Shown here: positions 3,760 through 45,172 of the stretch, piece after piece
Layout: the number at the start of each line of letters is the position of its first letter
Numbering within the stretch: the stretch's first letter is position 1
Source: Parcubacteria group bacterium Gr01-1014_8
Lineage (GTDB): Bacteria > Patescibacteriota > Minisyncoccia > Phycocordibacterales > UBA2100
Reading direction: 5' to 3'
NCBI GenBank assembly: GCA_007376385.1
Contig: VMGC01000004.1
Span: 64,001-128,000, forward strand
DNA: 64,000 nucleotides
Program-made: the position numbers and the translations under genes
Notes under the pieces: generated by a model
What the model was told of the DNA's origin: nothing
The model's input: the letters and a program-made list of their open reading frames with translations, nothing else
The model's database searches: none

Positions 3760-5595
3760 TCAGAAATTTCCCCACGCTGCCGGATGCCATGGTACTTTCG
3801 TAGAAATTTTTTCGGTCTTTTGCCGAAAGCCGTCATCCTTCATCAATTCTCGAATCGAAGGAAGAGTCTTGGGAGCGTTAGGCAATTTTTCTAGTACATA
3901 TACTTGCACAGGCGTACCAGAGGCAGTCATTTTTTTACGCAAAATAACATTCAGTATCTTTATGCGAGGAGCAATACCGCCTTCGTTGGGTTCTGAAAAT
4001 ATGGATTCGAGAAGCTCTAGTACGGAGGGGTAGACATAACGCGCCTCTATGAATATCTGCCCGTTTGTCGCAAGCCGTTCATAGAGTTCTCTCAAGACTC
4101 TGTCGTATAACGATTGAAATGCAGCTTTGTTTGCTATCTTCTCTTTCATTGCTCCGATCGGCCTGAAAAAAACGGTATCTAAAACAAATCCCCGAGATAT
4201 ATGGTCGTCGATTCTCGCAAGTAGGTTCTTGAGGCTTCCTCCTCTGCCCCGACGGAGAACATCCCCAGGGACAAATTCCAGTCCTGGACGGTGAGTCTGG
4301 GCGACGGCATTGGCATGAGGAGTATCACTTGGATCGATTGCTGTGGCCGCGATCATCGCGTCTTCACCTGCTTCAAATCCTAAATTTCCCTGGCCGAATA
4401 CATCTACGAAGAGGACTTTCTGTTTATTTCCATGTCGCTTTGCAATTCGTTCTTGGATACGTTGCGGAGACGAAAGCCCCCAGAAGGAGAGTTTATCAAC
4501 GCTCTCTTGCGAATTTATCTGTGTTGACCTTTTTACCTCATCTTCAATGTCGTCGGGGCTTCTCGCAAAATACGGAATATTACCCGCGTATGCATCCCAG
4601 TTTTTTTCTTTTAGCTTCTGTGCATCATGCATGTCGTATTTCAAGCTTTCTAACCCGCGGCGCATAACACCTTTTTTTAGGATTTTAAATTTGCGCACAG
4701 GTTTGGTGCGAAGTTTTGCCGTCTCTGAAATATAGTTCTCGTCCACTTGAGAATCTCCTGCTCGGTCGACATATATCTGCCGTTTGTAATAAGGTCTCAC
4801 AGTTTTTATGCTTATCAAATGACCGCCAACAATGGGCGCGTTTGACCCGAGTCTTTCGTCAAGACTAGTCTGGAGAGCGAAAATCTTTTCGGCTTGATTT
4901 TTGATGTTGCCGTTAGGTAACCGTGCGATATCGGCCGTTTTCATTCGAAGGATATAATCTTCATCTGTGAGAACCAAGCCTTCATTGCCTGATGGGAGAA
5001 GTGATTGGTCGGGAGCGAGTACATCGGTCCTACTCAAGTAATCAATGTCTAGTTTCCGAAGACGTTCAACCTCGGCAATTCCGGTGCCGGTTGTTCCATA
5101 ATACGTCGTAAAACCTTTGGTTTTTCCTACCGCGATCCGACTCATTATCGCCGCCAACGTTGTCGAAGCGCTGATTATTGAGTTAAACGAAGGCTCCGAA
5201 AATATCGTTGTATAGAGATCCTTCCCGATACCTTTCTGCTGGTGTTCTTTGCCCACGATAATGTCACGAAGAATCGCGACGGAGGCGTCGCTTGCGTCGC
5301 GCTCGATGCAACAAAATCCGAGTACGCGAGAATCGGAAGTTTTAATGAAAACCTTATCAACGCTCTCGAATGTTATCTGCAATTGTCGCTCAAATTCCGC
5401 TTCATCACGATCGTATGCCTCCTTAATGAGGGGCCAAAACAGATCCTTAAGTTGGACAATGTTCTCGTTCCACATCTCTTTGTCTTTAACGGTAAGGACG
5501 AGACTAGCACTTGAGATATCCATCGAGGCGCCTTTGAAATTCTCAAGCTTTAGTTTGAGCTCATTTGGACAATCACTCCCGATATCCCGTATCAT
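3760..5595 (-). CDS. Multidomain protein: N-terminal GNAT acetyltransferase, central unknown region, C-terminal class-I SAM methyltransferase-like domain
   Basis: 611-aa ORF. GNAT core 'VLGFCCIERDASDASVAILRDIIVGKEHQQKGIGKDLY' (Q/RxxGxG). C-terminal 'KVLFVDVFGQGNLGFEAG...IDPSD...FVPGDVL' resembles MTase motifs I, post-I and II. Start codon uncertain; an alternative Met is 24 codons downstream. Confidence 0.4.
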   Translation of the reverse strand: MIRDIGSDCPNELKLKLENFKGASMDISSASLVLTVKDKEMWNENIVQLKDLFWPLIKEAYDRDEAEFERQLQITFESVDKVFIKTSDSRVLGFCCIERDASDASVAILRDIIVGKEHQQKGIGKDLYTTIFSEPSFNSIISASTTLAAIMSRIAVGKTKGFTTYYGTTGTGIAEVERLRKLDIDYLSRTDVLAPDQSLLPSGNEGLVLTDEDYILRMKTADIARLPNGNIKNQAEKIFALQTSLDERLGSNAPIVGGHLISIKTVRPYYKRQIYVDRAGDSQVDENYISETAKLRTKPVRKFKILKKGVMRRGLESLKYDMHDAQKLKEKNWDAYAGNIPYFARSPDDIEDEVKRSTQINSQESVDKLSFWGLSSPQRIQERIAKRHGNKQKVLFVDVFGQGNLGFEAGEDAMIAATAIDPSDTPHANAVAQTHRPGLEFVPGDVLRRGRGGSLKNLLARIDDHISRGFVLDTVFFRPIGAMKEKIANKAAFQSLYDRVLRELYERLATNGQIFIEARYVYPSVLELLESIFSEPNEGGIAPRIKILNVILRKKMTASGTPVQVYVLEKLPNAPKTLPSIRELMKDDGFRQKTEKISTKVPWHPAAWGNF

Positions 5596-9043: not shown

Positions 9044-9127
9044 ATGAAGAGATACGATCATCGCAAAATTGAGAAAAAATGGGCCTCCTTCGCTAAGGCT
9101 ACGGACGGGCAAACAGCAGAAGTATGA
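9044..9127 (+). other. 27-codon upstream ORF that mimics the LeuS N-terminus; its TGA overlaps the leuS ATG (ATGA)
   Basis: Translates as MKRYDHRKIEKKWASFAKATDGQTAEV*. Its first 13 residues parallel LeuS MKSYDHKRIERKW. The stop at 9125-9127 overlaps the leuS start at 9124-9126. Confidence 0.3.
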
Positions 9128-12081
9128 AAAGTTACGATCATAAACGTATAGAACGAAAGTGGCAGGCACGCTGGAAGAAATCGAAGCTGTACAAGACTGC
9201 CGATACGGTAAAAGGTAAGAAAAATTATTATTTGCTAACTGAATTTCCGTATCCGTCTGGCAATTTGCACGTCGGACACTGGTACGCTTTTTCTGTACCG
9301 GACATTTTAGCAAGAGCGCTCCGCATGCAAGGCAAGAATGTGATGTATCCGTTCGGCTTTGATGCATTCGGATTGCCTGCGGAAAACGCAGCCATAAAAA
9401 ATAAGTTGAATCCTCGAAAATGGACCCTCGGCAACATCAAGTACATGAAAAAACAGATAACCTCGATGGGTGCATCGTTTGATTGGTCTCGAGAACTCGC
9501 TACGTGCGATCCTGAATACTACAAGTGGACGCAGTGGCAGTTTTTGCAATTTTTTAAGGCAGGACTCGCATATCGAAAAGAGACAGCAGTCAATTGGTGC
9601 CCTTCGTGCAAGACAGTGCTTGCGAACGAGCAGGTAGTGGATGGAAAATGCGAACGATGCGGAACGGAAGTGATTCAGAAGCAAATGCTTCAATGGAACT
9701 TAAAAATCACCGACTATGCGGACCGTCTTATTGACGATTTGAGCACGCTGGATTGGCCTGAACAGATAAAGGAATCGCAGAAAAATTGGATAGGACGTTC
9801 TGAAGGCGCCGAGATAGATTTCAGGCTCACAGGAAATGTAGGCGATGACTCACGGTATCTGATCCTCCACGGCAGAGAAGGGAAGCCCACGAGCGTCTTT
9901 ATTCCATGGCTCAAAGAAGAACTGGAAAAAGCTGGACATGAAGTGGAAGTGCCACAGCTTCCCAACACGAATGAACCGAATGCATATGAACAGGCAGAAT
10001 ACATCCTCAAGAACTGCACCGTAGATGAAAAAACAGTTGTGATAGGCCACTCGATAGGAGGAGTTACAGCGCTGCGTCTCTTGGAGAAGGGCGCAAAGGT
10101 TAGGCGCGTTATATTGGTCGCGACACCGTACTCAGGAAGATTTTTGGATGGTAAGAAACGGCCGAGCGTCACAGATTCCGTGAAGAAGGGGTTCGATTTC
10201 GAGACGATACGGAACAATACAAAGAGCATCATTGTTATGCCGGATGTAAAAGATGACAGAGTTCCATTTTCCGACGCCGAGAGCTATGCGCAGAAACTGG
10301 CCGGGATGCTGGTCCATGGCAGGGGAGAGGAGAAGCATTTTATGGGTAAGATAGAGCCGGATGTATTGATGTGCCTTTGCCCCACTATCCGCGTTTTTAC
10401 GACGCGAGCCGACACGCTTTTCGGGGCGACCTACATGGTCTTGTCCCCGGAACATCCATGGGTACGGTTAGCGATAGATGATGATCACAAAGTTTTAGAA
10501 AATAAGGATGAGGTAAAGGAATACGTCACAGCGGCGAATAAAAAAACTGAGCTGGAACGCCTCACGGAACAAAAAGAAAAGACCGGGGTGAGGCTGAAAG
10601 GCGTTGAGGGAGTAAACCCCGCTACGGGCGAGAAGATACCGATATTCGTAGCAGACTACGTGCTTGCGCACTACGGGACAGGGGCCATCATGGCGGTCCC
10701 GGCGCACGATGAGCGCGACTTTGCATTTGCCAAGAAATTTGAGCTGCCGATACGAGATGTGATCTCTACTGGAAAGATGGAATCCGGCGTGTTCGCAGGA
10801 GAAGGAGTGTTGGTGAATTCCGGCGCGTTCAATGGGCTAAAAAGTATCGAGGCTAAGAGCACGCTCACCGATAAATTTGGCCGCAGTAAAATCACGTACA
10901 AACTCCGCGATTGGATAGTTTCGCGCCAGCGTTACTGGGGAGTTCCAATACCCATCGTCCACTGCGAAAGGTGTGGAGACGTCGCTATTCCTGATCCACA
11001 GCTTCCCGTTACATTGCCGGAAATCAAAGATTATTTGCCAACCGGAGACGGAAAATCGCCTCTCGCAAAAGCCAAAAAGTGGGTCAAAGTGAAATGTCCG
11101 CAGTGCAAAGGGACGGCAGAAAGAGAAACAGATACTCTCGATACGTTCGTCGATTCATCCTGGTACTTTTTGCGGTACGCGGACACAATAAACAAAAAAA
11201 AGTTTGCCGATATGAAAAAGATGGATGCATGGATGCCGGTAGATCTCTATTCCGGAGGAGCAGAACACACAACGATGCACCTCCTCTATTCTCGCTTCTG
11301 GCAGAAGGCGCTCTACGATCTAAAGCTCGTTAAGGACAGCGAGCCGTACACGCGAAGGATGAATCGTTCCATCATTCTTGGTCCAGACGGGCAAAAGATG
11401 TCGAAATCCCGAGGCAACGTGATAGACCCGGATGCTGTTGTCGCGAAACTCGGCGCAGACACCGTGCGTATGTACCTTGCCTTCATAGGTCCGTATAATG
11501 AGGTTTCGAACTATCCGTGGAATCCGGATGGTGTGGTAGGTATTCGCCGTTTTCTCGAGCGTGTTTGGCGCCTCCGCGACCGACTTACGATATCGGTCAA
11601 GAAAAGTGACGGACATACGATATCGAACATCGAACGGATGCTGCATGTAACGATTAAAAAGGTGGGGGACGATATCACTGCCCTGAAATTCAATACTGCC
11701 ATCGCGCAGATGATGTCGTTTATGAACGAAGCAGAGAGTAAAGGGATCACAAAGGCGCAATACGAGACACTGCTTCGGCTTCTTGCCCCGTTCGCTCCTC
11801 ATATTGCAGACGAACTTTGGAGCATGATGGGACACAAGAAGTCGGTTCATATTGAAAAATGGCCCGCATTCGATCCGCATAAACTCGCGTCGTCGTCGTT
11901 TACAATTGCGGTACAAGTGAATGGCAAGACACGAACTCAAATCACCATACCTGCTGCAGTGAAGGAAGACGCCGTGAAGGAACAGGCTGAAACAGCTGCA
12001 GGAAAATGGTTGGAGGGAAAGGCTATAAAAAAGATCATCTACGTGCCCGGCCGCATCGTCAACATCGTCGCGGGCGAATAG
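9124..12081 (+). CDS. leuS: Leucyl-tRNA synthetase carrying an inserted alpha/beta serine-hydrolase domain
   Basis: HIGH-type 'PYPSGNLHVGH', KMSKS 'QKMSKS', CP1 editing-domain landmarks 'VFTTRADT', 'GTGAIMAVPAHDERDFAFA' and 'RDWIVSRQRYWG'. Residues about 243-419 form an RBBP9/YdeN-like hydrolase (LILHG...VVIGHSIGG...). Total 985 aa. Confidence 0.9.
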   Translation: MKSYDHKRIERKWQARWKKSKLYKTADTVKGKKNYYLLTEFPYPSGNLHVGHWYAFSVPDILARALRMQGKNVMYPFGFDAFGLPAENAAIKNKLNPRKWTLGNIKYMKKQITSMGASFDWSRELATCDPEYYKWTQWQFLQFFKAGLAYRKETAVNWCPSCKTVLANEQVVDGKCERCGTEVIQKQMLQWNLKITDYADRLIDDLSTLDWPEQIKESQKNWIGRSEGAEIDFRLTGNVGDDSRYLILHGREGKPTSVFIPWLKEELEKAGHEVEVPQLPNTNEPNAYEQAEYILKNCTVDEKTVVIGHSIGGVTALRLLEKGAKVRRVILVATPYSGRFLDGKKRPSVTDSVKKGFDFETIRNNTKSIIVMPDVKDDRVPFSDAESYAQKLAGMLVHGRGEEKHFMGKIEPDVLMCLCPTIRVFTTRADTLFGATYMVLSPEHPWVRLAIDDDHKVLENKDEVKEYVTAANKKTELERLTEQKEKTGVRLKGVEGVNPATGEKIPIFVADYVLAHYGTGAIMAVPAHDERDFAFAKKFELPIRDVISTGKMESGVFAGEGVLVNSGAFNGLKSIEAKSTLTDKFGRSKITYKLRDWIVSRQRYWGVPIPIVHCERCGDVAIPDPQLPVTLPEIKDYLPTGDGKSPLAKAKKWVKVKCPQCKGTAERETDTLDTFVDSSWYFLRYADTINKKKFADMKKMDAWMPVDLYSGGAEHTTMHLLYSRFWQKALYDLKLVKDSEPYTRRMNRSIILGPDGQKMSKSRGNVIDPDAVVAKLGADTVRMYLAFIGPYNEVSNYPWNPDGVVGIRRFLERVWRLRDRLTISVKKSDGHTISNIERMLHVTIKKVGDDITALKFNTAIAQMMSFMNEAESKGITKAQYETLLRLLAPFAPHIADELWSMMGHKKSVHIEKWPAFDPHKLASSSFTIAVQVNGKTRTQITIPAAVKEDAVKEQAETAAGKWLEGKAIKKIIYVPGRIVNIVAGE

Positions 12082-12084
12082 TCC

Positions 12085-13509
12085 CTATTTTTGGGAGATA
12101 CGAGGACCTTTGGTCGAGTCTTCGAGGTTGAATCCATGCGCAGCGACCATGCTGCGTAATTCGTCGGCCCGTTTCCAATCTTTTGCACCTCGGGCCGTCT
12201 CGCGTTCATCGACAAGTGCGCGAACTTCCGGCGGCAGCTCATCAATAGATACGTTGTTCGCTGCGCTGCCGGATTCAAGTTTCAGTCCTAATACCGCATC
12301 AAAATCTTTGAGAGCGTTGTATTTTTTGACGGCACTGACGTTTGGGTCTTTTACAAGCTCCCACACAACTGCGAGCGCTCCAGGAGTGTCCACGTCATCA
12401 TTAATTCGCTTTCTGAACATATCTATATATGGATCAGCGTTCTTGCCAGTGTCTTTATTATCCCTGAACGAACCATACAAATTGTATAGGCGATTCAAAG
12501 ACGTCTGCGCTGCAGTCATTCCGTCCCACGAAAAACTTGCTGGCGTGCGGTAGTGAGCGCCGAGGAGAAGATATCGGAATACGAGGGGAGAGAACCCGCG
12601 TTCGACGACATTTGATACATAGATGGTATTGCCTTCCGACTTTGCAATTTTGGCGCCCTCTATCTGTACGTGGGCGCGATGAAGCCAGAAGCGTGAAAAT
12701 GGCTTTTTACCTGTCGCAGATTCAGATTGAGCTATTTCGTTATTGTGGTGAATTGGAATGTGCTCTATTCCACCAGTATGAATATCTATCTGGTCGCCTA
12801 AGAGCTCTCTACTCATCACTGAGCACTCGATATGCCAGCCGGGATAGCCCTTTCCCCATGGCGAATCCCAGCCCAACGTATCCTGACTGCTAAGTTTCCA
12901 AAGCAAAAAATCGGTGGGATTTTTTTTGTCCGAAGTCGATGAGACACGTGCGCCTTCGCGAATGCCAGATAGGTCGATGTTGCCCAATGTTCCGTACGCC
13001 GGGAATTTCGACGAATCAAAATACATGCCTTGTTTCCCGCGATACGCGAATCCTTTTTTTTCGAGGGTTTTTACCATCTCTATCTGCTGCGGAATATAGT
13101 CTGACGCGCGCGGGAATGAAGTGCTGGCAGTATTGATGTTCAGAAGTTTTAGGTCCTCCAGAAACAAGTCAGCATATTTCTTGCCAAGTGCGCGCATGTT
13201 CTCGAGCGTGAGTTCCATGCCCTCTCGTTTCAATCCTTTTGTCATGCGGTCTTCTCCCTCGTCCGCATCGCCCTGGTTATCTCCGGTCAAATGGCCGACA
13301 TCGGTAAAATTTATTGCTTGTTTGACCTTGTAGCCGTTGAATTCGAGAGTGCGCCGCAATAGATCTACGAATACGAACATAGACAAGTTTCCGATATGTT
13401 GAGGACCGTAGACGGTCGGACCGCAGTTGTACATTTTTACTTCTCCTCTCTGCAGCATCGTAAACTCTTGCTTTTTACCGGTCAGCGTGTTGTAAAAGAA
13501 AAGCGGCAT
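12085..13509 (-). CDS. cysS: Cysteinyl-tRNA synthetase
   Basis: 'MYNCGPTVYGPQHIGN' (HIGH region) and 'KIAKSEGN' (KMSKS-like). Start chosen at MPLFFYNTLTGKKQEF (rc ATG 13507-13509). The track ORF extends 34 codons further upstream. Confidence 0.85.
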   Translation of the reverse strand: MPLFFYNTLTGKKQEFTMLQRGEVKMYNCGPTVYGPQHIGNLSMFVFVDLLRRTLEFNGYKVKQAINFTDVGHLTGDNQGDADEGEDRMTKGLKREGMELTLENMRALGKKYADLFLEDLKLLNINTASTSFPRASDYIPQQIEMVKTLEKKGFAYRGKQGMYFDSSKFPAYGTLGNIDLSGIREGARVSSTSDKKNPTDFLLWKLSSQDTLGWDSPWGKGYPGWHIECSVMSRELLGDQIDIHTGGIEHIPIHHNNEIAQSESATGKKPFSRFWLHRAHVQIEGAKIAKSEGNTIYVSNVVERGFSPLVFRYLLLGAHYRTPASFSWDGMTAAQTSLNRLYNLYGSFRDNKDTGKNADPYIDMFRKRINDDVDTPGALAVVWELVKDPNVSAVKKYNALKDFDAVLGLKLESGSAANNVSIDELPPEVRALVDERETARGAKDWKRADELRSMVAAHGFNLEDSTKGPRISQK

Positions 13510-13661
13510 ATTCGCCGATGCTGAACCGCTTCTGTTCATACGAAACGGAAATGCAGACAGGATGTCTGAGATCACCTGCCCGACGACATCAGCGAGAGAC
13601 CGCATGACCAAAAGTATGCCTGCATTTGCTTCAGACTACAAGCGGAGAATGGCTCGTTGTC

Positions 13662-21318: not shown

Positions 21319-22650
21319 TTACGAAAGAGAAGCTATGGCTTTGCTGACGCGCCGCACTGTCTCATCCTTACCGAGGATCGAAGCAACAAGAAAAGGGTCC
21401 GGTGACTGTTCTTTGCCGGTAAGAGAGTATCGAAAAGGCCAAAGAACTGCTCCCCTTCCCTCTTTAGTGGCGTAGGGCCAAAGCGCATCTTTTATCGAGG
21501 ATACGTCGAATACATTCAACGCTTCAAGCAGAGTCTTGATATCCCTAAGATGCTCGGCAGTTTTTGCGGCGCTGATCTTCTTCATTGGAATGAGATGTGC
21601 CTCTACTGAGGGCTGAACGAAGAAATAGTCGTATTCGCCGTTCATTGATTGTTCGTGAATGTCGCTCCATACAGAAATTCGCTCGCGAACAAGCGGAATG
21701 ATCTTTTTTGCAATGGATTCGTTCCAGTTCAAATGCGTAAGTGAATTTTCAAGCCACGACAGAGCCTCTGATGCGAACGCACTATCTGATAGTTTCAACA
21801 TATATTCGCGATTGAACCATCGCAATTTCTCAACATCGAAGACTGCTCCGCTTTTGTGCAGATCTGATAGTTCGAATTCCTGTACCATCTCATCGAGCGA
21901 CAATACTTCCCTTCCTGACGGCGCAGTCCACCCCAGCGTCGCTAGGTAGTTCAAGAGCGCTTGGGGCAGATATCCCTTTTCCCTGTAATTCTTTACAGCA
22001 ACGTCGCCCTTTCGCTTGGATAATTTTGCCCGGTCGAGGCTCAGGTGCAGAGGATAATGGGCGTACATGGGTCTTTTCGCGCCGAGTGCTTCTTGAATGA
22101 GAATTTGACGCGGCGTATTAGATATATGGTCCTCCCCTCTGATAACGTGCGTAATTCCCATAGCCGCATCGTCAACCACGACGGCAAGATGATACAGCGG
22201 GTCGTCCTTGGAGCGAGCGATGACAAAGTCTTTAAGCTCCGTTGTGTCAAACGATATATCGCCGCGTATGACATCAGTAAACGTGATAGTTTTGCCGGAA
22301 TTCCGCAATCGAATAACGCTCACCATTGTACCGGGGTCCTTCTTACTCTCTTCGTCCGATACGTATGCTTTATCTTCATCAATAAGTTTTTCTATTTCAG
22401 CGCGATACACGTCGATCCTCTCGGATTGTCTATGAAATTCGTCCCATGAAAGCCCAAGCCACGTGAGCGAATCTTTGATGTCATCCTCGAATTCTCGGGT
22501 ACTTCGTTCTTTGTCCGTATCCTCTGAGCGAAAAATGATGGTGCCATTGTTTTTTCGCGCAAACAAATAATTCACGATGGCCATACGCGCAGTACCTACG
22601 TGGCAGAACCCGGTCGGGCTCGGCGGAAATCTAACCCGCACGGAATTCAT
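21319..22650 (-). CDS. gltX: Glutamyl-tRNA synthetase
   Basis: 'VRVRFPPSPTGFCHVGTAR' (HIGH) and 'KLSKRKG' (KMSKS). Confidence 0.85.
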   Translation of the reverse strand: MNSVRVRFPPSPTGFCHVGTARMAIVNYLFARKNNGTIIFRSEDTDKERSTREFEDDIKDSLTWLGLSWDEFHRQSERIDVYRAEIEKLIDEDKAYVSDEESKKDPGTMVSVIRLRNSGKTITFTDVIRGDISFDTTELKDFVIARSKDDPLYHLAVVVDDAAMGITHVIRGEDHISNTPRQILIQEALGAKRPMYAHYPLHLSLDRAKLSKRKGDVAVKNYREKGYLPQALLNYLATLGWTAPSGREVLSLDEMVQEFELSDLHKSGAVFDVEKLRWFNREYMLKLSDSAFASEALSWLENSLTHLNWNESIAKKIIPLVRERISVWSDIHEQSMNGEYDYFFVQPSVEAHLIPMKKISAAKTAEHLRDIKTLLEALNVFDVSSIKDALWPYATKEGRGAVLWPFRYSLTGKEQSPDPFLVASILGKDETVRRVSKAIASLS

Positions 22651-36727: not shown

Positions 36728-37813
36728 CTACAGGCCTTCAGCGCGCAAGTTCTCAATGAGAATTTTCGCGCTTTTCGAAAGTTTTTTCGGAAATTCAATA
36801 TTCACCCTAACCAATAGATCTCCTCGACTCCCTCGTCCTGATGGCACACCTTTTCCGCGTACTCGAATGAACTCTCCATGCGTAACGCCGGCAGGAACAG
36901 TGACCGTCGTCTCACCGTCCAGCGATTGTATCGTGTAGTCTCCGCCAAGCAGTGCGTCAGTAAGTTTTATCGGCAGCACCATAACGAGATTGCTCCCGTC
37001 GCGCGTAAATACTTTGTCTGCTTTTACGTGCAATTTCACATAGAGGTCTCCCGCTGATACTCCAGGAGCAGCCTCCCCCCTCCCCGGCATTCGTATCATC
37101 TCGCCATTTTCAACACCAGCAGGAACACTCACGCGGATCTCTTCCTCTCTCTTTGCTACGCCTTCGCCGTTGCATGCCGTGCATGGCTGATCCGGCACTT
37201 CCCGTCGGCCATGGCACTGCGGGCATGTCCTCACTGATGTAAACGAACCGAAAAACGAGTTGCGGCTTTCGTGTATCTGACCTTTGCCATTGCACATCGT
37301 ACACTCTGTCATCCGGGAACCCTTCTTGGCACCAGTACCAGTGCAGACGTCGCATGTTGTAACTTTTGAGATCAGAACTCGTCTCTCCGTCCCAAAGATA
37401 GCGTCTTTGAATGGTATTTCTATATCTATCGAGATGTCGCGGCCTCTTTTTTGCTTTCGGCCCGTAGCGCCGCCGAAAAATTCGCCAAAAATATCACCGA
37501 GGTCGAATTCAACTCCCTCTCCGCTGAAACCGCTTCCTCCTGCACCGGAAAATCCAGCAAATTTAGAGAAATCAAATCCGCCGAATCCTCCCGCGCCTCC
37601 GCCGCCTGAAAATGTCTTCCCGTACGCGTCATACTCTGCCCGTTTCTTCTTATCAGACAAGACGGCGTATGCCTCACTGACCTCCTTGAACTTCGCTTCG
37701 TCTCCGCCTTTTTTATCCGGATGAAATTTATGTGCAAGCGAGCGAAAGGCTTTTTTAATATCCTCCTCCGTCGCAGTTTTCTGTATACCCAATATTTGGT
37801 AGTAGTCTTTCAT
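36728..37813 (-). CDS. dnaJ: Chaperone DnaJ (type I: J domain, G/F region, four CxxCxGxG repeats)
   Basis: 'KDYYQILGI...HPDK', and 'CDVCTGTG', 'CTMCNGKG', 'CPQCHGRR', 'CTACNGEG'. The first ATG is at M4 of the track ORF, whose first codon is GTG. Confidence 0.85.
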
Positions 37814-37917
37814 ATGGATCACTTTAAGGAATATCTTTCGAAACTCCGTGCATTAGCGCTGGTAATACTTCGTTATCTCATGCGTACCTCCCGTACTCCA
37901 GAACCCTCTACATCGCA

Positions 37918-38023
37918 GTATACCCCATGAGATAATATCGCAACAAGTGCAACAATGCTGTTGATAATTTGATGCATTTCGAGTTTGATGTGTACGTGAT
38001 TCATTCTATCTCACGGGGTATAC
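37918..38023. repeat. Intercistronic palindromic element, copy A, between dnaK and dnaJ: arms GTATACCCCATGAGATA / TATCTCACGGGGTATAC with a 72-nt spacer
   Basis: Left arm 37918-37934 and right arm 38007-38023 are reverse complements apart from one A/G. Confidence 0.55.
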
Positions 38024-38108
38024 ATCCATGCTTCGTCACCCTACAAGCGATGGATACATGTGGATAGTGCGCCGCTTTGCACCTGCGCGGCACACGCTAC
38101 CGACCCGC

Positions 38109-39965
38109 TCAATCTTTTTTTGGTTCTTGGCCATCCGCAGGAGGCGTCTCGCCGCCTTGGGCGGGACCCTTCGACATGGCTTCGCCGATGGCACTCATCG
38201 CGGCAGAAAGCGCATCTACTGCATTTTTTATGGCGACCGCATCATTCCCCGCTCTGGCCGTTTTTAGCGCATCTATCTTCTCCTGAACATTTTTCTTCAC
38301 ATCAGAACCGATCTTCTCTCCATGCTCGCGCAGAGCTTTCTCCGCGGCGTACACAAGTTGGTCAGCGGCGTTCTGTGCCTCCACCAATTCCTTCTTTTTC
38401 TTGTCAGACTCGGCGTTGGCATCAGCATCCGAGCGCATTTTTTCAACGTCCGCATCAGTTAATCCGGAACGCGCCTCTATCCGTATTGATTGCTCCTTAC
38501 CAGACGTTTTTTCCTTCGCTTTGACAGAGAGAATGCCGTTTGCATCTATATCGAAACTGACCTCGATTTGCGGCATGCCTCGTGGCGACGGCGGAATACC
38601 GTCCAGGTTGAACCGTCCCAAAGACTTATTGTCTGCAGCCATCGGTCTCTCGCCTTGTACGACATGTATCTCGACGGACGGTTGGTTGTCCGCCGCCGTC
38701 GAAAACACCTGCGATTTTGAAGTAGGAATAGTCGTGTTTCTTTCAATTAATTTTGTTGCAACCCCTCCGAGTGTCTCTATGCCGAAAGAAAGAGGTATGA
38801 CATCGAGAAGAAGCACATCCTTTACGTCGCCCTGCAAAATTCCTCCCTGGATAGCCGCACCGATGGCAACGACCTCGTCCGGGTTTACTCCCATGTGCGG
38901 CTTTTTTCCGAAAAAATCCTCAACTGCCTTTTGAAGCGCCGGCATTCGTGTTTGTCCTCCCACGAGAATAACTTCATTGATATCTCCTATTTTGAACGGC
39001 GAGGCTTCCATTGCGCGTTTTGTTATAGCAATAGCTCTATCAACAAATTCGCGAGAAAGGTCCTCAAGCTTCCCGCGCGTCATCTTAATAAGGAGATGCC
39101 GGGGGCCGGACGAATCCGACGTGATGAACGGAATATTGATCTCAGTTTCTAGCGCGCTTGAGAGTTCTATTTTGGCTTTCTCTGCACCTTCATCAAGTCG
39201 TTGCCGTGCCAAGGGATCATTACGAACATCAATGCCTGACTCTTTTTTGAATTCATCAGCTATCCAATTCATGATATTCTGGTCCAGATCTTTTCCTCCA
39301 AGATGGGCATCGCCATCGGTTGAACGGACTTCTATCACGTCGTCACCCACTTCCAGAACGGAGATGTCGAACGTGCCTCCGCCAAAGTCGAACACAACGA
39401 TTTTTTCGTTCTTTTTTTTGTTAAAACCATATGCTAAGGCAGCTGCAGTCGGTTCATTGATGATGCGCTTCACATCAAGTCCCGCTATCTTGCCCGCATC
39501 ACGCGTTGCCTGACGCTGTGAATCGTTGAAATATGCGGGAACGGTAATGACCGCTTCCGTGATCGTCTCGCCCAGCTTCGCTTCAGCGTCCTGTTTTAAC
39601 TTTTGCAGGATCATGGCAGAGATCTCCTCTGGCCGGTACCACTTAGAACCCATGTGCACCTCTATGCCGCCATTCGAGCTTTTCTGCATCTCAAAAGGCA
39701 CCGCTTTCCTATCCTTTTCTACTGCAGCTTCGTCGAACGAGTGTCCGATGAAGCGCTTTATTTGATAAATTGTGTTTTTCGGATTCGTAACCGCTTGTCT
39801 TTTTGCAAGAAGTCCGACAAGCCGCTCCCCTGTCTTTGAGGTGGCGACAACGGACGGCGTCGTCCGAGCGCCCTCAGCATTTTCTATGATGTCAGGCTCG
39901 CCTCCTTTCACTATTGCAATCGCTGAATTCGTCGTTCCAAGATCTATGCCGAGTATTTTTCCCAT
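38109..39965 (-). CDS. dnaK: Chaperone DnaK (Hsp70)
   Basis: '[13 protein letters not shown]', 'DLGGGTFD' and '[11 protein letters not shown]' Hsp70 signatures, 618 aa. Confidence 0.9.
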
Positions 39966-40015
39966 ATTTTTATAATATATGTTTTAACCTGCATCATTTT
40001 ATCCCTACGCTGAGA

Positions 40016-40824
40016 TTGTGCAAGTCAGACTTGCACAAACATGACATATTTATGAGCTGTCGTCAAAATCCATTGCCAAACGGACAAATTCATTGTCAAA
40101 CGCATACACACCATTTAATACGTCCTTTGCTGAATTTAAGAATTTCCGTTCGTCGGTTTCAACGACCTCATCAAGAGCGTCGTAGTCGAGTATCTGGGAT
40201 CGCCGCGAGCCTAGAACGTCTATAAGGCTCGCGAATGGATATGCTCGTGCCTGCTGTAATGCCTCATCGTATTTCTGAAAAGCACTATCTAAGCCGCCGG
40301 GGAATCTCTCGAACGGATTTTTGACGGTAATGTATGCAAGTAAATATTGCAGATATTCATCATCATGGACGGTGCGAGCTTTGTACGAACTCTGAAACAG
40401 AGTTCCCTCTTCGCTGTACTTGGCGTTGAAATATGCTGCCATACTCGTGCATAGTCTCTGCATAAAAGCGCTGATACCATTTTCTACGTTCTCGCGTACG
40501 AGCAAATGGAAGTGATTATCCATAAGACAGAACGCTAAGATTGACACGTATGGCTTTTGCTTTCGCCAATGTTCAGGACGTGAAAATCCGGCACGAATAT
40601 TGTCTGGGCCGATATCGCGCTCCCAATTCCGCGGCGTGTTGTCGTCGTTTAGGTAACGTAGGAGTTTAAGAAATCGCCACCGGTCGTCATCGTCTCGGAT
40701 TATGCTCATGCCGCGTGTACCTCTCTTCATTACATGCACGTACGAGCCGACGGAATACGGTTCTCTTCTCATACTTGACAGATTACATTATTCTTCTGCA
40801 CTTGTGCAAGTCAGACTTGCACAA
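40016..40824 (-). mobile_element. IS200/IS605- or RAYT-like element: Y1 (HUH) transposase flanked by two direct copies of a 23-bp hairpin TTGTGCAAGTCAGACTTGCACAA
   Basis: Hairpins at 40016-40038 and 40802-40824 have 11-bp palindromic arms, and each is followed by CATGAC. The insertion splits grpE from dnaK. Confidence 0.6.
40050..40772 (-). CDS. HUH-Y1 single-strand transposase (IS200/IS605 TnpA / REP-associated tyrosine transposase-like)
   Basis: 'YVHVMKRG...RWRFLKLL' parallels the N-terminal beta-strands of TnpA. 'FCLMDNHFHLLV' is the HUH motif, and 'GTLFQSSYKART' carries the candidate catalytic Tyr. Confidence 0.55.
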   Translation of the reverse strand: MRREPYSVGSYVHVMKRGTRGMSIIRDDDDRWRFLKLLRYLNDDNTPRNWERDIGPDNIRAGFSRPEHWRKQKPYVSILAFCLMDNHFHLLVRENVENGISAFMQRLCTSMAAYFNAKYSEEGTLFQSSYKARTVHDDEYLQYLLAYITVKNPFERFPGGLDSAFQKYDEALQQARAYPFASLIDVLGSRRSQILDYDALDEVVETDERKFLNSAKDVLNGVYAFDNEFVRLAMDFDDSS

Positions 40825-40842
40825 CGCATGACTTTTCCAGTT

Positions 40843-41448
40843 TCAACCCTCTAATTTGTACATTGTGATATGCGCCGGACGAAGAATGCGACCCCCTAAC
40901 TTCCAACCTCGCCTCACGATACGAGCAACAGTACCAGGCTCGCCCTCTTCATCAACTTCTTGCACGATGTCATGCATTGTCGGATCGTATTTCTCGCCCG
41001 GCTTTCCAAAAGGCACCACACTGGCACTTTCAAGAGCACTTTCGAGCTGTGCCTTTATCCCTTCCAAGCCTGCCCTCCACGTCGCATCCACAGTCTGCCA
41101 GGATGGTGAGAGGGATGCCATGTCAAAACTATCGAGTGCTGGGATGAGAGCCTCGATAAGGCGAGCTACCCTTGCAGTACTTGCCCTTTCGACCATACTC
41201 TCGGCTTCCTTTTTTTGGTTTACCGCATCAGCTTTGCATCTTTGCCATCCATCCAAGAATTCCTGCCGTTCCTTTTTTGCCTGCGCAAGTTCATCGCGCA
41301 ACTTTTTCAACTTCGCTTTTGCGGCATCAAGATCGCTGAGCTCCGCCTCGTCGTCGACAAGTCGAGACGGATAGTCCTCGGGTTCGAAATCGATATCTTC
41401 CTTTAGGTCATCGTCATCCATCGCGCAAAGTATATCAAAATTGTGCAA
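40843..41448 (-). CDS. grpE: Nucleotide exchange factor GrpE
   Basis: Acidic N-terminus, long coiled coil 'KAKLKKLRDELAQAKKERQEFLDGWQRCKAD' and C-terminal beta-domain '...VVPFGKPGEKYDPTMHDIVQEV'. Confidence 0.8.
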   Translation of the reverse strand: MHNFDILCAMDDDDLKEDIDFEPEDYPSRLVDDEAELSDLDAAKAKLKKLRDELAQAKKERQEFLDGWQRCKADAVNQKKEAESMVERASTARVARLIEALIPALDSFDMASLSPSWQTVDATWRAGLEGIKAQLESALESASVVPFGKPGEKYDPTMHDIVQEVDEEGEPGTVARIVRRGWKLGGRILRPAHITMYKLEG

Positions 41449-41470: not shown

Positions 41471-41836
41471 TTAATGAATATAAAGAGTTGCATCGACGTA
41501 CGATTGGAAAAAGCTGTAGATGATAAAGATCACAAATACAATCAGGGGCAACGCCGTCACAAGTGTGGTCCACATGTAGTATCGACGTGATATCCCGGCT
41601 CGTTTCATCGCGAATAATATGATCACGCCGATGAGCGTCATCACGCCACTGGGAATAACAGCAAAAAAGATAAACATGACGGCAAAGACTAAAGGTATAA
41701 CCAATCCTTCTAAACCCGTGTGTATCTTCTGTGCTTCAAGAAGGCTTCTGAACGTCAAAATTGTTCCAAGTATGGGAACAGCGGCACAAAGACCAAAGAG
41801 GATTTTGTAGGAGCGCGATATAAATTTCTCGCCCAT
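41471..41836 (-). CDS. Hypothetical 4-TM membrane protein
   Basis: Start moved to the second Met (MGEKF) to avoid a 16-nt overlap with rpsI; this is uncertain. Confidence 0.35.
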   Translation of the reverse strand: MGEKFISRSYKILFGLCAAVPILGTILTFRSLLEAQKIHTGLEGLVIPLVFAVMFIFFAVIPSGVMTLIGVIILFAMKRAGISRRYYMWTTLVTALPLIVFVIFIIYSFFQSYVDATLYIH

Positions 41837-41838
41837 GC

Positions 41839-42234
41839 TTATCGCTTCGACCATTGCGGCGCACGTCGTGCAGCTTTAAGTCCGAATTTCTTTCTTTCTT
41901 TTGCTCGCGGATCGCGCTTCAGAAAGCCTCTTTGTTTTAGGTCTTTTCGGAACGATGCCTCTATATCAACCAGTGCGCGTGCAATGCCATGTCTCAGGGC
42001 ATCTGCCTGCGCCTTTTTGCCTCCGCCCTTCACTTTGGCTGTAACCGCATATGTACCGCCTACCGCTTTGAGGGGAGAAGTCACGGTATCTACCATGAGA
42101 GGGATCTGAAAGTAATCGATAGCATCCTTGTCGTTCACCTGTATCGAAATATTCTTTGCACTCACGAGCCTTACCCGCGCCGTTGCTGTTTTGCGACGTC
42201 CGACTGCCTCCGTGTACGATGTGATTTTGCTCAT
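41839..42234 (-). CDS. rpsI: 30S ribosomal protein S9
   Basis: 'GRRKTATARVRLV' and C-terminal '...RRAPQWSKR'. Confidence 0.85.
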   Translation of the reverse strand: MSKITSYTEAVGRRKTATARVRLVSAKNISIQVNDKDAIDYFQIPLMVDTVTSPLKAVGGTYAVTAKVKGGGKKAQADALRHGIARALVDIEASFRKDLKQRGFLKRDPRAKERKKFGLKAARRAPQWSKR

Positions 42235-42256
42235 GACAAGTTGGTGAGTGTAAAGA

Positions 42257-42610
42257 TTATTCCGTGATGTGCAAGCGCTTCATCCTGTTCGTTCGCGAAG
42301 CATTGCGCGGCAGCATTCTTTCTATTGCACGCTTTAATGCTTCGCCTCTGCCTTTTCGCGCAATAAGAGAACCGAGTGTTTCGCGCTTTAATCCGCCCGG
42401 ATGCCCTGAATATGTGTGATACATTTTTTTCTGTCTCTTTTTTTCAGGTAGGTACAACTTTGCCGCGTTTGTGATGGAAACTTTGACTGCCGATAAGATA
42501 TGCCTTGTATACGAAGGATCCGTCTTCCCCATAAGCGCCTTGGCGGCCTGCGATGCTACACGTCCAAGTTTTTTTCCCGCAGCATCGATGGTGTATTCAG
42601 TATGGGTCAT
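42257..42610 (-). CDS. rplM: 50S ribosomal protein L13
   Basis: '...IDAAGKKLGRVASQAAKALMGK' matches the L13 N-terminus, 117 aa. Confidence 0.8.
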   Translation of the reverse strand: MTHTEYTIDAAGKKLGRVASQAAKALMGKTDPSYTRHILSAVKVSITNAAKLYLPEKKRQKKMYHTYSGHPGGLKRETLGSLIARKGRGEALKRAIERMLPRNASRTNRMKRLHITE

Positions 42611-42612
42611 AG

Positions 42613-42969
42613 TTATTGTACGAATTCAATGCGTGCAGACTCGCTGACTCGTTTGCCAATCCTGCCTAATTTTATGACCCGTGTGTACCCCCCGGCACGG
42701 GACATGTATCGCGGCGCGATGGTATCGTGAAGTCTCTTTACAGCATCTGCCGCGTTCCCCAATCGCTCCGATATGATCCTTTTTGATTGCAATGTATTCA
42801 CCTTGCTTGCTGTGACAAGACGCTCCATGTACGGGCGAAGCTCCTTGGCTTTTGCGGCAGTTGTCGTAATACCTCCCTCAAGAACGAGCGAGCGTGCAAG
42901 GCCGCGAAGCAGCGCAACGCGCTGGCGCTTCGTGCGGCCGAGTGTTCGTGTGTTCTTGTGATGACGCAT
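42613..42969 (-). CDS. rplQ: 50S ribosomal protein L17
   Basis: 'MRHHKNTRTLGRTKRQRVALLRGLARSLV' matches the L17 N-terminus. Confidence 0.8.
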   Translation of the reverse strand: MRHHKNTRTLGRTKRQRVALLRGLARSLVLEGGITTTAAKAKELRPYMERLVTASKVNTLQSKRIISERLGNAADAVKRLHDTIAPRYMSRAGGYTRVIKLGRIGKRVSESARIEFVQ

Positions 42970-42972
42970 ATT

Positions 42973-43941
42973 TTATTGCGTGCGAAGAGTCAGTCCCAAA
43001 TTAGAGAGGGCGCGCTTTATGTCCTGCAAGCCCTTCTGACCCAGTCCTTCGATCGAAAGCAGGTCGTCTTCTCGCTTCCTGACAAGACCTCCGACTGTTC
43101 GAATGGATGCATTATCAAGCGCAGCTTCAACGCGAGGGGGAAGCTTGAGTTCAGATATTCGTGTCTTGAGCATTTCTGCGTCTGCACCCTGCAGCTTATC
43201 GTCGCGGTGCGCCGATTCATCCGCATCCTCATCCGTTGCTTCTGCTTTTTCTTCCTTGAACCCGACGATCGCACGCAGCTGATGTATCATCGTCTCCACC
43301 GAACGCTCGAGAGCCTCGTGAGGAGATATCGTACCGTCCGTTTCTATCACCATGCGAAGGCGGTTAAAATCAGTTCGGTCACCGACACGCATGTTCTCTA
43401 CTTCATAGTTGACGCGGCGGATAGGAGAAAAAATGGCGTCGAGTGCAATGGAACCGACTTCAACGCGTTCCTTTTGATGAATTTCTTTCGGTACGTATCC
43501 GAGACCCCTCTCTGCATGAACTTCCATCTCAAGCGTTGTTTTCGAAATTATTTCCGCGATATGCTGCTCTGGATTCAAGATTTCCACCTGCCCCGGCAGC
43601 TTAAAATCAGCGGCGGTAACGGTATGAGGACCTTTTACAGAGAGCGTCAGTGTTTGCGGCTCATCAGTAAGGAATTTCAACCGCACACGGCGAAGATTGA
43701 GGAGCATCGTGACCATATCTTCTCGAACTCCCTCGACCGTGGAAAACTCATGCGGTACACCGGGGATTTTTACGTGCGTTACTGCCGCCCCAGGAAGAGA
43801 GGAAAGAATGATGCGTCTGAGCGAGTTGCCGAGTGTATACCCATACCCCGGATACAGGCCATCTATTTCATAGACGCCGCTTCGCTCGTCTTCCGAGACA
43901 ATACGTGGCTTACTGGGAAGAGCTATGTGATAGTCCAACAT
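42973..43941 (-). CDS. rpoA: DNA-directed RNA polymerase subunit alpha
   Basis: 'YTLGNSLRRIILSSLPGAAVTHVKI' (N-terminal domain) and C-terminal domain 'SIRTVGGLVRKREDDLLSIEGLGQKGLQDI'. Confidence 0.85.
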   Translation of the reverse strand: MLDYHIALPSKPRIVSEDERSGVYEIDGLYPGYGYTLGNSLRRIILSSLPGAAVTHVKIPGVPHEFSTVEGVREDMVTMLLNLRRVRLKFLTDEPQTLTLSVKGPHTVTAADFKLPGQVEILNPEQHIAEIISKTTLEMEVHAERGLGYVPKEIHQKERVEVGSIALDAIFSPIRRVNYEVENMRVGDRTDFNRLRMVIETDGTISPHEALERSVETMIHQLRAIVGFKEEKAEATDEDADESAHRDDKLQGADAEMLKTRISELKLPPRVEAALDNASIRTVGGLVRKREDDLLSIEGLGQKGLQDIKRALSNLGLTLRTQ

Positions 43942-44130
43942 AAAAAAATGGCGCGTTAGGCGAAAGGAGGCTTAAAATCTGGATAAAAAAGCGATTAATA
44001 AAAGATACGAAAAACGCGAAACAGTATACCCCAACATAATGCTGTTGGCAATATTTACGTCCGTGGATAAGTTATGTTCATAAAGCTCGTTGGCATATGT
44101 AAAGGTAGGAATATATTCAAGATATACATT

Positions 44131-44736
44131 CTACCTGCTGTAAAACTCGAACACCGAAGGATAATCGAGAGCAGACTCCGTTGGTGAGTATTGTGCCTCG
44201 CCGGTAATCTCTCCTTTCATCAACGACACGTCAACAGAAAGCCATGCAGGTATAGGACGAGAAGCAGTCTCAGGGTTTCCAAGATGCGCGAAAAGTGCGC
44301 TTTTGCGCGAGCCCTCTCGAACGGCAAAAACATCGCCCTTTTTTAGTCTGTGCGATGGGACCATTGTGCGAATGCCGTTCACTGTAATGTGGCCATGAGA
44401 GACCATTTGGCGGCCTGCACGGCGTGTCAGAGCAAAGCCGGCACGATATACAACGCTATCAAGGCGCTCTTCCAGAGCGCGATGCAATGCAAGAGATGGG
44501 TTCTCGTTCTCGTATGCTTTCTTTGCATAATTTGAAAGACTCTTTTCAGTTAATCCATATGTATAGCGCACTCGCTGTTTTTCTATAAGCTGTCTTCCGT
44601 AATCGGAACCTCCGCCTCTCTTCTGTTTCTTTACCGTGCGCGCTTCCGAGAGAGCGAATTTTTGTGTTTGGCATTGTTCGAACACCGCAGGTCCAAGGCG
44701 CTTTCCGATCTTGTATTTTGATCTTACAGGCAGCAT
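44131..44736 (-). CDS. rpsD: 30S ribosomal protein S4
   Basis: Start at MLPVRSKYKIGKRLG. The C-terminal S4 domain 'LDSVVYRAGFALTRRAGRQMVSHGHITVNG' is conserved. Confidence 0.8.
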   Translation of the reverse strand: MLPVRSKYKIGKRLGPAVFEQCQTQKFALSEARTVKKQKRGGGSDYGRQLIEKQRVRYTYGLTEKSLSNYAKKAYENENPSLALHRALEERLDSVVYRAGFALTRRAGRQMVSHGHITVNGIRTMVPSHRLKKGDVFAVREGSRKSALFAHLGNPETASRPIPAWLSVDVSLMKGEITGEAQYSPTESALDYPSVFEFYSR

Positions 44737-44737
44737 A

Positions 44738-45172
44738 TTATATTCGTCTTGGTTTTGGCGCTCGCGGCCCGTTGTGAGGCACTGGTGTATCATCCGCTAT
44801 TCTCGATACTTCTATCCCCTTGCTTGCAAATGCCCGAAGGGCCGATTCCCGTCCTGCACCCACTCCGCGAATGACAACATCCACTTCTTTCACGCCTATC
44901 ATACCTGCCTTCTCGCCGACAAGTTCTCCGACCTTTGCAGCGGCAAACGGCGTTCCCTTCTTTGCTCCTGAAAAGCCAAGCGCGCCTGAAGACGACCATG
45001 CAACGGTATTCCCCTCTTTGTCGGACAGAAGTACTTTCGTATTGTTGTAGGTAGCATGAATGTGCAACGTTCCCGCTGTCATGACGCGTTTGGCTGTGCG
45101 CGAAAGCGAGCGCGATTTTAGCCCCTGATCGACAGTACCGCCTGATTTTCGAATGATGCGTTTTTTTCCCAT
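44738..45172 (-). CDS. rpsK: 30S ribosomal protein S11
   Basis: '...GTLHIHATYNNTKVLLSDKEGNTVAWSSSGALGFSGAKKGTPFAA' is the S11 core. Confidence 0.85.
   Translation of the reverse strand: MGKKRIIRKSGGTVDQGLKSRSLSRTAKRVMTAGTLHIHATYNNTKVLLSDKEGNTVAWSSSGALGFSGAKKGTPFAAAKVGELVGEKAGMIGVKEVDVVIRGVGAGRESALRAFASKGIEVSRIADDTPVPHNGPRAPKPRRI

Follow-up and report, generated by a model that had tools for sequence, protein, structure and literature searches.

In the usual description of REP/RAYT and TIRtron systems, where a transposase gene lies between palindromes or inverted repeats, the transposase is "domesticated", present as a single copy and passed on vertically, and the systems come mainly from Proteobacteria, with a few other phyla besides. 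In the insertion sequence IS608, the cleavage or target motifs stand at fixed distances from the hairpins, with TTAC 19 nt to the 5' side of the left-end hairpin and TCAA 10 nt to the 3' side of the right-end hairpin. Here, we describe a hairpin-flanked Y1 gene in a 64-kb stretch of DNA (the window) from Parcubacteria group bacterium Gr01-1014_8. The unit occupies positions 40016-40824, within the chaperone operon between grpE and dnaK. A first-pass annotation had read this segment as an IS200/IS605- or RAYT-like Y1 transposase inserted between the two genes, and our analysis supports that interpretation as essentially right, with corrections. From sequence comparison, we consider it probable that the segment is a REPtron/TIRtron-type mobile cassette, a class-2-like HUH/Y1 gene between cognate hairpins, at a grpE|dnaK site that has been filled or emptied many times in Kaiserbacteria-like Parcubacteria independently of the flanking genes.

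The best structural match is the E. coli REPtron (TnpAREP/RAYT YafM, 4ER8), with which the cassette shares the HUH/Y1 fold and a single gene copy (here, within the 64 kb analysed) between cognate palindromes in inverted arrangement. Both also have solitary palindromes, mostly intergenic between co-directional genes and sometimes intragenic (PMC3733652). With the TIRYT proteins of TIRtrons, which form TnpAY1 subclass 2.1 (Quentin et al. 2018, PMC6006769; Di Nocera et al. 2013, PMC3733652), it shares the length class (median 238 aa), the NH[YF]H HuH motif, an "FQ" replacing the W motif and a C-terminal "SS" motif (here YPFSSL), all compared by inspection of the published motif signatures and not with the authors' profiles. 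TIRYT genes likewise lie between inverted terminal repeats, some of them self-complementary, which are able to form small repeat families. Elements of the IS200/IS605 group (IS608, ISDra2) have in common with the cassette a single gene for a Y1 HUH enzyme, hairpin-containing ends, a fixed-distance motif and a length of ~0.8 kb. The cassette is best filed with the REPtron/TIRtron kind, and for Patescibacteria (candidate phyla radiation, CPR) no account of a system of this sort turned up in the literature searched. It is distinguished by its apparent recurrence as a mobile unit at the dnaK promoter, by a hairpin arm that would stand in for the -35 box, and by a symmetric hairpin that lacks a GTAG foot and has GTCAA at a fixed distance.

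Occupancy of the grpE|dnaK site among relatives

One genome per GTDB species was surveyed for homologues of the Y1 gene, which gave 19 loci (comparison loci are labelled L001-L147, and the window is WIN in the trees). The order grpE-Y1-dnaK, with the same orientation, was found in 11 of these 19 loci, in at least six metagenome loci and in L140. Eight relatives were sampled through GrpE, separately from the Y1-based survey. L140 was the sole carrier among them; in 7/8, grpE was followed directly by dnaK without a cassette, and the spacers of 5-126 nt held no palindrome. This bears out the earlier suggestion that the chaperone operon had received an insertion. An "ancient insertion, vertically inherited", a reading derived from the 11/19 syntenic loci, was dropped after the GrpE-based sampling and the construction of the trees.

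Host relationships were estimated from GrpE, DnaK, S9, L13 and L17 (1092 columns, neighbour-joining, bootstrapped). Carriers and non-carriers were interleaved in this tree, and four pairs of sisters consisted of one occupied and one empty locus, namely WIN/L143, L005/L144 and L140/L141 (each with 100% bootstrap support) and L004/L146 (92%). The Y1 tree (neighbour-joining, 220 columns) was in conflict with the host tree. Specifically, the Y1 clades (L003,L007) and (L004,L005,L015), each supported at 99%, received 0% support from the host genes, and host clades with 99-100% support received 0% from Y1. The immediate neighbours of the Y1 gene sided with the host tree, as both GrpE alone (140 columns) and DnaK residues 1-200 gave ~0% support to Y1-type clades. 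A Mantel test on pairwise identities, Y1 vs. DnaK and GrpE, carried no information, in that DnaK against GrpE was itself non-significant once a duplicate genome was removed; bootstrapped trees were used instead.

The first-pass annotation had raised the alternative of a conserved, non-mobile gene at this position. Many relatives do carry the open reading frame (ORF) at the site, but its occupancy is patchy among sisters and the tree of Y1 disagrees with those of the flanking genes. Because of these two observations, sequence comparison indicates that the hairpin-Y1-hairpin unit is mobile on evolutionary time, repeatedly gained or lost at one site, and is not a vertically inherited host gene. 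In this gain and loss and in the tree conflict it differs from the vertical inheritance of REPtrons. One genome held two cassette copies, 81% identical, at different sites and each with its own hairpins, and the cassette was also found at unrelated sites, e.g., ligA|gatC. Two genomes (L013 and L018) carried a TGTGCATACC-type cassette upstream of homologous genes for small membrane proteins (MKTTQRGFVVPLL... and MDTSQRGFIVPLL...). Other Y1 subfamilies may also have preferred sites.

Alignment of the closest occupied/empty pair, L140/L141, gave a match that is at most suggestive (TTGCCAAGCAC vs. TTGACAAGCAC), and the other pairs were too diverged. An arm of the upstream hairpin of L140 with its flank (~4110-4140; CTTGCCAAGCAC) resembled the empty-site -35 region of L141 (~4028-4045; CTTGACAAGCAC), with 11/12 positions matching, or 10/11 without the leading C. 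The empty-site -35 of L141, CTTGACAAG, is itself a 4-1-4 palindrome. The resemblance could point to the target or could have arisen by chance. The palindrome and the Y1 family were both absent from IMG/VR, and carriage by phages was not found there.

The Y1 protein and its hairpins

The cassette and the genes around it are arranged as follows, with positions counted in the window:

40016-40824, operon orientation: whole cassette, hairpin-Y1 gene-hairpin, 809 bp
41448..40843, minus strand: grpE, the left flank (Pfam GrpE, 106 bits)
40802..40824, no strand assigned: upstream hairpin pal_up, 18 nt past the grpE stop; homologous palindromes at the same place in 19/19 loci
40809-40804, minus strand: right arm of pal_up, TTGCAC, 16 nt before the -10-like TGTAAT
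40773..40801, minus strand: linker from pal_up to the Y1 start codon, holding the -10-like TGTAAT (40787-40782) and TGTCAA (40780-40775)
40780-40775, minus strand: TGTCAA, the fixed-distance motif, 2 nt before the Y1 ATG
40050..40772 (start 40772), minus strand: Y1/HUH endonuclease gene, 240 aa, with HUH residues H87-F-H89, tyrosine Y147 and a helical C-terminal extension (residues 155-235)
40061..40066, plus strand: second, inward-facing GTCAA-type motif, CGTCAA (TTGACG on the gene strand), 24 nt from the pal_dn core
40016..40038, no strand assigned: downstream hairpin pal_dn; right arm TTGCAC at 40023-40018 on the minus strand, at the position of the dnaK -35
39996..40001, minus strand: predicted dnaK -10 box TAAAAT, with 16 nt between it and the preceding arm TTGCAC and 30 nt to the following dnaK ATG (39965)
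38109..39965, minus strand: dnaK, the right flank (Pfam HSP70, 814 bits)
37822..36728, minus strand: dnaJ

By profile, motifs and predicted fold, the 240-aa ORF is a genuine HUH/Y1 protein. The Pfam profile PF01797 (Y1_Tnp), a search that the first-pass annotation had proposed for its Y1 transposase, matched at 44.1 bits (cut-off 23; E 2.7e-11). The match aligned residues 75-149 with profile positions 40-119 of 121 and ended in the Y147 region. Y1_Tnp was the only Pfam domain found in the 240-aa protein; a C-terminal helix-turn-helix (Bac_DnaA_C, HTH_23 or HTH_28) was not found, which is a difference from TIRYT. In an alignment of 30 homologues (47-73% identity), H87, H89, Y147, I148, K151 and N152 (AYIxVKNP) were invariant. 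The HUH motif that had been placed in LMDNHFHLLV is therefore upheld by the invariance of H87-F-H89. The tyrosine is a different matter. The earlier choice, Y129 in LFQSSYKAR, is rejected as the catalytic residue because it is replaced by Phe in 5/30 homologues while Y147 is invariant, and the putative catalytic tyrosine is Y147 in AYITVKNP. An AlphaFold2 model (pLDDT 90, pTM 0.88) places Y147 on a helix (138-154) that follows the last (fourth) core strand (131-134).

A search of the PDB by sequence alone with the Y1 protein returned nothing, and only the fold search gave matches. With Foldseek, the best match was 4er8_A, the E. coli TnpAREP with a REP hairpin bound (E 2e-5, probability 1.00), followed by the IS608, ISDra2 and IS200 transposases 2a6m, 2xma, 2vjv and 2f4f (E 2e-4 to 1e-3, probability 1.00). 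The NCBIfam equivalog profiles for RAYT (NF047646) and IS200 (NF033573) scored 35.2 and 14.1 bits, below their cut-offs of 80 and 55, respectively. An IS200-like identity, judged by equivalog profile, is thus not sustained. The proposed membership of the RAYT-like group holds for the fold, which best matches 4ER8, but not for the RAYT profile, and the motifs are nearer to the long subclass 2.1/TIRYT. The family signatures are NHFH, LFQ, a YPFSSL tail and a length of 233-240 aa. The tyrosine motif of the family, Y147-I-x-[VI]-K-N152-(P), corresponds to Y-x4-N-P and is one residue longer than the class-2 Y-x-x-x-N-P, which sets it apart from TIRYT as well as from the REPtron protein (Y-x3-N-P, 165 aa against 240 here). 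"Parcubacteria group bacterium Gr01-1014_8" is the recorded source of an identical protein, and more than 300 homologues of 233-240 aa came from Kaiserbacteria and Paceibacterota metagenomes. At 90% identity, the homologues formed clusters of 1-13 members, nearly all with one to few.

The 23-mer TTGTGCAAGTCAGACTTGCACAA was present in exactly two copies in the window, at 40016-40038 and 40802-40824, and no further copy with up to three mismatches was found in the 64 kb. Shuffling the sequence 100 times gave no match, which confirms the report of a twofold palindrome bracketing the ORF as something chance does not predict; the ORF itself is real and lies on the minus strand. TTGTGCAAGTCAGACTTGCACAA is an 11-1-11 palindrome with perfect arms and the central base alone unpaired. 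As single-stranded DNA, either strand would form a hairpin of 10 bp closed by a loop of 3 nt, with a folding energy of about -10 to -12 kcal/mol (z about -4). The CATGAC noted after each copy is present on the plus strand of the window, at 40040-45 (1-nt gap) and 40827-32 (2-nt gap), but this extension was not conserved in related loci.

Palindromes of 21-25 nt were found on both sides of the Y1 ORF in 19/19 GTDB loci, regardless of the neighbouring genes, and palindromes of the same kind flanked the gene in 8/8 non-chaperone loci. In this respect the family differs from subclass 2.1, which was reported to lack REP-like hairpins beside the gene (PMC6006769). Stem covariation was strong: pairing holds in 95.8% of cells, each of the 11 pairs has changes on its two sides, the covariation score was reached by 0/500 shuffles, and slid controls collapsed. 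The hairpin subtype also tracked the Y1 tree. On this comparative evidence, the hairpins belong to the Y1 gene and covary with it as cognate ends. A GTAG or GTGG foot was absent from all 35 aligned hairpins, and no GGGGWSAS terminal repeats, as known from TIRYT, were found in the cassette flanks of the window or the 19 loci. Instead, GTCAA started 23-24 nt from the 21-nt hairpin core in 35/242 flanks, against 0-2 at every other offset, and never occurred on both sides of one hairpin. At cassette ends, it faced inward in 22/30 cases and outward in 0/30. In the window, the second of these motifs (TTGACG, 40061..40066) overlaps the final ORF codons F-D-D. The perfect 11-1-11 palindrome, the missing GTAG foot, GTCAA at 23-24 nt and the low copy number are all differences from the REPtron.

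Several loci carried additional hairpins. Locus-specific hairpins lay 0.3-2.3 kb from the Y1 gene at non-dnaK sites (L009 2535-2563, L012 3621-3641, L017 3464-3488, L028 2155-2175), and inverted, REPIN-like hairpin doublets adjoined the Y1 gene in L008, L010 and L011. In L085 (459-530), a [TTGACA-N22-hairpin] unit formed a tandem direct repeat with a period of 51 nt, which suggests that linker and hexamer belong to the repeated unit along with the palindrome.

The dnaK promoter and solitary hairpins

In 16/16 occupied loci, the right arm of pal_dn, TTGCAC, was followed, after 16-17 nt, by a -10 box with 5-6/6 matches to the consensus. L140, in which the hairpin has diverged, kept this layout as TTGCCA-16-TATAAT. 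Among the empty sites, 5/7 had a canonical dnaK promoter, TTGACA-17/18-TATAAx, and in the remaining 2/7 the grpE-dnaK spacer (5 and 24 nt) leaves no room for a promoter. In occupied loci, the spacer has a purine-rich end which, like the -10 box, resembled its empty-site counterpart, and the empty sites held no hairpin relic. The simplest reading is that the hairpin arm TTGCAC appears to replace the native -35 of the dnaK promoter. On the Y1 side, the -10 box was weaker and in most loci ended 6-9 nt before the Y1 ATG. We propose with low confidence that the Y1 transcript is weak and nearly leaderless. The heat-shock operator CIRCE (TTAGCACTC-N9-GAGTGCTAA) had no match in the window with up to three mismatches; the cassette palindrome has a 1-nt spacing and a different sequence.

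Metagenome contigs were scanned with the pattern TGTGCAAGYYWRRCTTGCACA, which gave at least 120 stretches, with 130 hairpin copies among the matches listed; the figures below for solitary, intergenic, in-frame and embedded copies refer to those matches. Hairpins were solitary, without a nearby Y1 gene, in 105/120 stretches. The REP-like dispersal that the first-pass annotation had anticipated is therefore seen among relatives but not within the window, where no extra copy occurs. The exact form TGTGCAAGTC[AT]GACTTGCACA made up 97/130 copies. Intergenic copies amounted to 69%, against ~18% expected, and lay mainly between co-directional genes. The remaining copies stood in frame inside genes, where 21 nt make up seven codons:

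murB, nine loci: L057, L067, L071, L083, L095, L105, L108, L119, L122
leuS, four loci: L042, L051, L082, L092
other genes: dnaE L130; uvrB L083; typA L106; dus L021, L086; ahcY L046
other genes, continued: cysS L096; mutY/nth L117, L077; dprA L093

The in-frame hairpins encode the peptides VQVRLAQ, CASQTCT or CKSDLHK. In murB and leuS, the hairpin stands in place of a variable segment and the protein is not lengthened. In-frame variants stay palindromic through compensating changes (AAGTC/GACTT vs. AAGTT/AACTT). LeuS and CysS of hairpin-bearing contigs were 61-65% identical to the window proteins, and thus these contigs come from relatives. The window genes leuS (9124-12081) and cysS (12085-13611) had no in-frame hairpin at the orthologous positions, and no extra hairpins were found in ~95 kb of syntenic GTDB loci. 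Intragenic REPs, including those in replication and repair genes, and terminal inverted repeat families around TIRYT genes have already been described (PMC3733652). The in-frame copies resemble these intragenic REPs and the Rickettsia palindromic elements (RPE) in being palindromes in frame within conserved genes, replication and repair genes included (PMC3733652). They differ from RPE in that the unit is 21 nt (seven codons), replaces a variable segment in murB and leuS, and is seen in relatives but not in the window.

Of the unique copies, 11/105 were embedded in longer locus-specific palindromes, against 0.4 expected. In each, the 21-nt palindrome was central, with 4-10 extra complementary bp on either side (L020, L022, L031, L034, L045, L052, L056, L090, L103, L107, L111). 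This suggests insertion at hairpin centres, or an inverted target duplication. The copy in L103 resembled the loop of a terminator stem, with a T-run after it. A match at L091 (2281-2301; TGTGCAAGTCTAGCTTGCACA) lay in a low-complexity, Gln/Ser-rich, eukaryotic-looking ORF and is probably a chance match unrelated to the hairpin family.

Around the cassette, grpE, the 240-aa ORF, dnaK and dnaJ follow one another on the minus strand, all co-directional, and the synteny rpsM-rpsK-rpsD-rpoA-rplQ-rplM-rpsI-grpE-dnaK-dnaJ is kept in this group (window 41471-45172, L140-L147). Ribosomal protein genes precede grpE in the window and in L140-L147, and there is no hrcA at that place. The GC content of the cassette (0.43-0.47) was slightly lower than that of its surroundings (0.48-0.53), a difference that is not diagnostic. 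An Rfam scan of 39800-41000 (E <= 1) gave no known RNA family, a search for intrinsic terminators in 36.5-42.5 kb gave none (the cassette hairpins lack a T-run), and no tRNA genes were found within the 64-kb window. A second, unrelated repeat family, ATACCCCRTGAGA, had five copies in the window against 0.13 expected, at 37911-38030 in the dnaK-dnaJ spacer and also at 22649, 54550 and 55453. Two of these copies formed an inverted pair between dnaK and dnaJ, with 24-nt arms that are 83% complementary and 72 nt apart. The dnaK-dnaJ spacers were unusually long, 0.5-1.4 kb, in several relatives (L001, L003, L008, L015).

Alternative explanations and significance

In the mechanism we propose for a mobile cassette, the Y1 protein would bind the hairpins as single-stranded DNA and nick at or near GTCAA, mobilising both the cassette and the solitary hairpins. 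Insertion would have displaced the native TTGACA -35, so that the pal_dn arm TTGCAC now acts as the dnaK -35, and the pal_up arm with its weak -10 box may drive a nearly leaderless Y1 transcript. A more specific version, which we think unlikely, would make the cassette a site-specific HUH element that recognises or cleaves the hexamer TTGACA (TGTCAA when read from the opposite strand), which is also the consensus -35. Such an element would home to the near-perfect dnaK -35 and rebuild the promoter with its own arm, coupling Y1 binding to chaperone expression. The 21-nt hairpin would then be a separate mini-element, settling at the centres of palindromes already present and, in frame as seven codons, in CPR housekeeping genes.

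Several points weigh against a mobile cassette. The whole case rests on sequence, and its trees are neighbour-joining trees built from short alignments (for Y1, 220 columns). The flanking non-coding DNA has diverged too far for the insertion junctions to be mapped. The window holds one Y1 gene and two hairpins in 64 kb, with no second copy of the gene, and so gives no sign of current activity in this genome. The occupied loci differ by 27-48% in Y1 protein, so that no transposition of recent date is on record. As perfect palindromes, the hairpins lack the strand-asymmetric mismatches of IS608 and REP systems, and the GTCAA motifs lie inside the hairpins and not outside, a misfit with the end geometry of IS608. 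Finally, TTGCAC matches the -35 consensus at only 3/6 positions in register.

The strongest competitor is spread by homologous recombination, which we regard as possible without expecting it to be the answer. One or a few rare insertions would have been followed by exchange of occupied and empty alleles among related lineages, which would take up DNA and recombine it through the conserved grpE 3' and dnaK 5' ends, and the constancy of the site would then say nothing about the target choice of Y1. Such exchange accounts for the same site and orientation, the patchiness and the tree conflict; conservation of the dnaK 5' end is high (DnaK identities of 81-87%), and neither an insertion junction nor a target duplication could be defined. 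However, the ~0% support of GrpE and of DnaK residues 1-200 for Y1-type clades means that any recombination tracts would have to stop a few hundred bases out at most. For recombination, the lineages are also strongly diverged, and both the ligA|gatC site and the two sites in one genome require a transposition-like route. A single entry of a RAYT-like Y1 gene into the operon, followed by vertical inheritance as a domesticated, immobile host gene of housekeeping-like character in one copy, with absences as simple losses, is improbable and already disfavoured by the data. At least 18 loci share the position and orientation, the window holds a single copy, the catalytic residues are kept across deep divergence, and RAYTs have been described as vertically inherited genes in single copy (PMC5581495). 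Nevertheless, occupied and empty loci are sisters four times over (92-100% bootstrap), empty sites have an intact canonical promoter with no relic of a hairpin, and the Y1 tree disagrees with GrpE, DnaK and the ribosomal proteins (99-100% against 0%).

We consider it very improbable that the cassette is an ordinary IS200/IS605 insertion sequence, which would have a class-1 TnpA, carry its left and right end hairpins on the same strand, insert 3' of a tetra- or pentanucleotide and be present in several nearly identical copies. The single Y1 gene, the subterminal hairpins, the length of ~0.8 kb, the presence and absence among relatives, and the significant matches to the IS608 and ISDra2 TnpA structures would all suit such an element. 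The protein is of another class, however, with an IS200 profile score of 14 bits against 55 and with 240 aa and Y-x4-N-P in place of ~150 aa and Y-x3-Q (PMC6006769, Table 1). Its hairpins are symmetric, its ends are inverted and not parallel, and the motif lies inside the hairpins. There is no tnpB and no second copy in 64 kb, and the 1-13 members of the 90% identity clusters do not point to a multi-copy element. The least probable of the alternatives takes the palindrome to be primarily an operator of the heat-shock regulon, possibly with Y1 as its repressor, and not a transposon end. Perfect dyad symmetry and the overlap with the -35 of both the Y1 and the dnaK promoters fit an operator, as does the lack of CIRCE in the window and of hrcA before grpE. 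An operator would not be expected beside Y1 genes outside chaperone contexts, where the same kind of palindrome was found in 8/8 loci, or as solitary copies within murB, leuS, dnaE, uvrB and other coding regions, and the dnaK promoters of Y1-less relatives lack the palindrome. A regulatory side-effect of Y1 binding, added to the role of the palindromes in the cassette, is possible.

Read as a mobile cassette, the gene-plus-hairpin unit would be one that recurs at the promoter of an essential chaperone gene in tiny, streamlined genomes. If confirmed, it would stand as a clear instance from nature in which a Y1 element keeps to one site at the level of the gene and a transposon end replaces part of a promoter, and it would offer a defined substrate, hairpin-N22-TGTCAA, for biochemical work on the long TnpAY1 proteins, which are poorly understood. 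With the in-frame hairpins in murB, leuS, dnaE and uvrB, the phenomenon known from the Rickettsia RPE reaches CPR bacteria as well.

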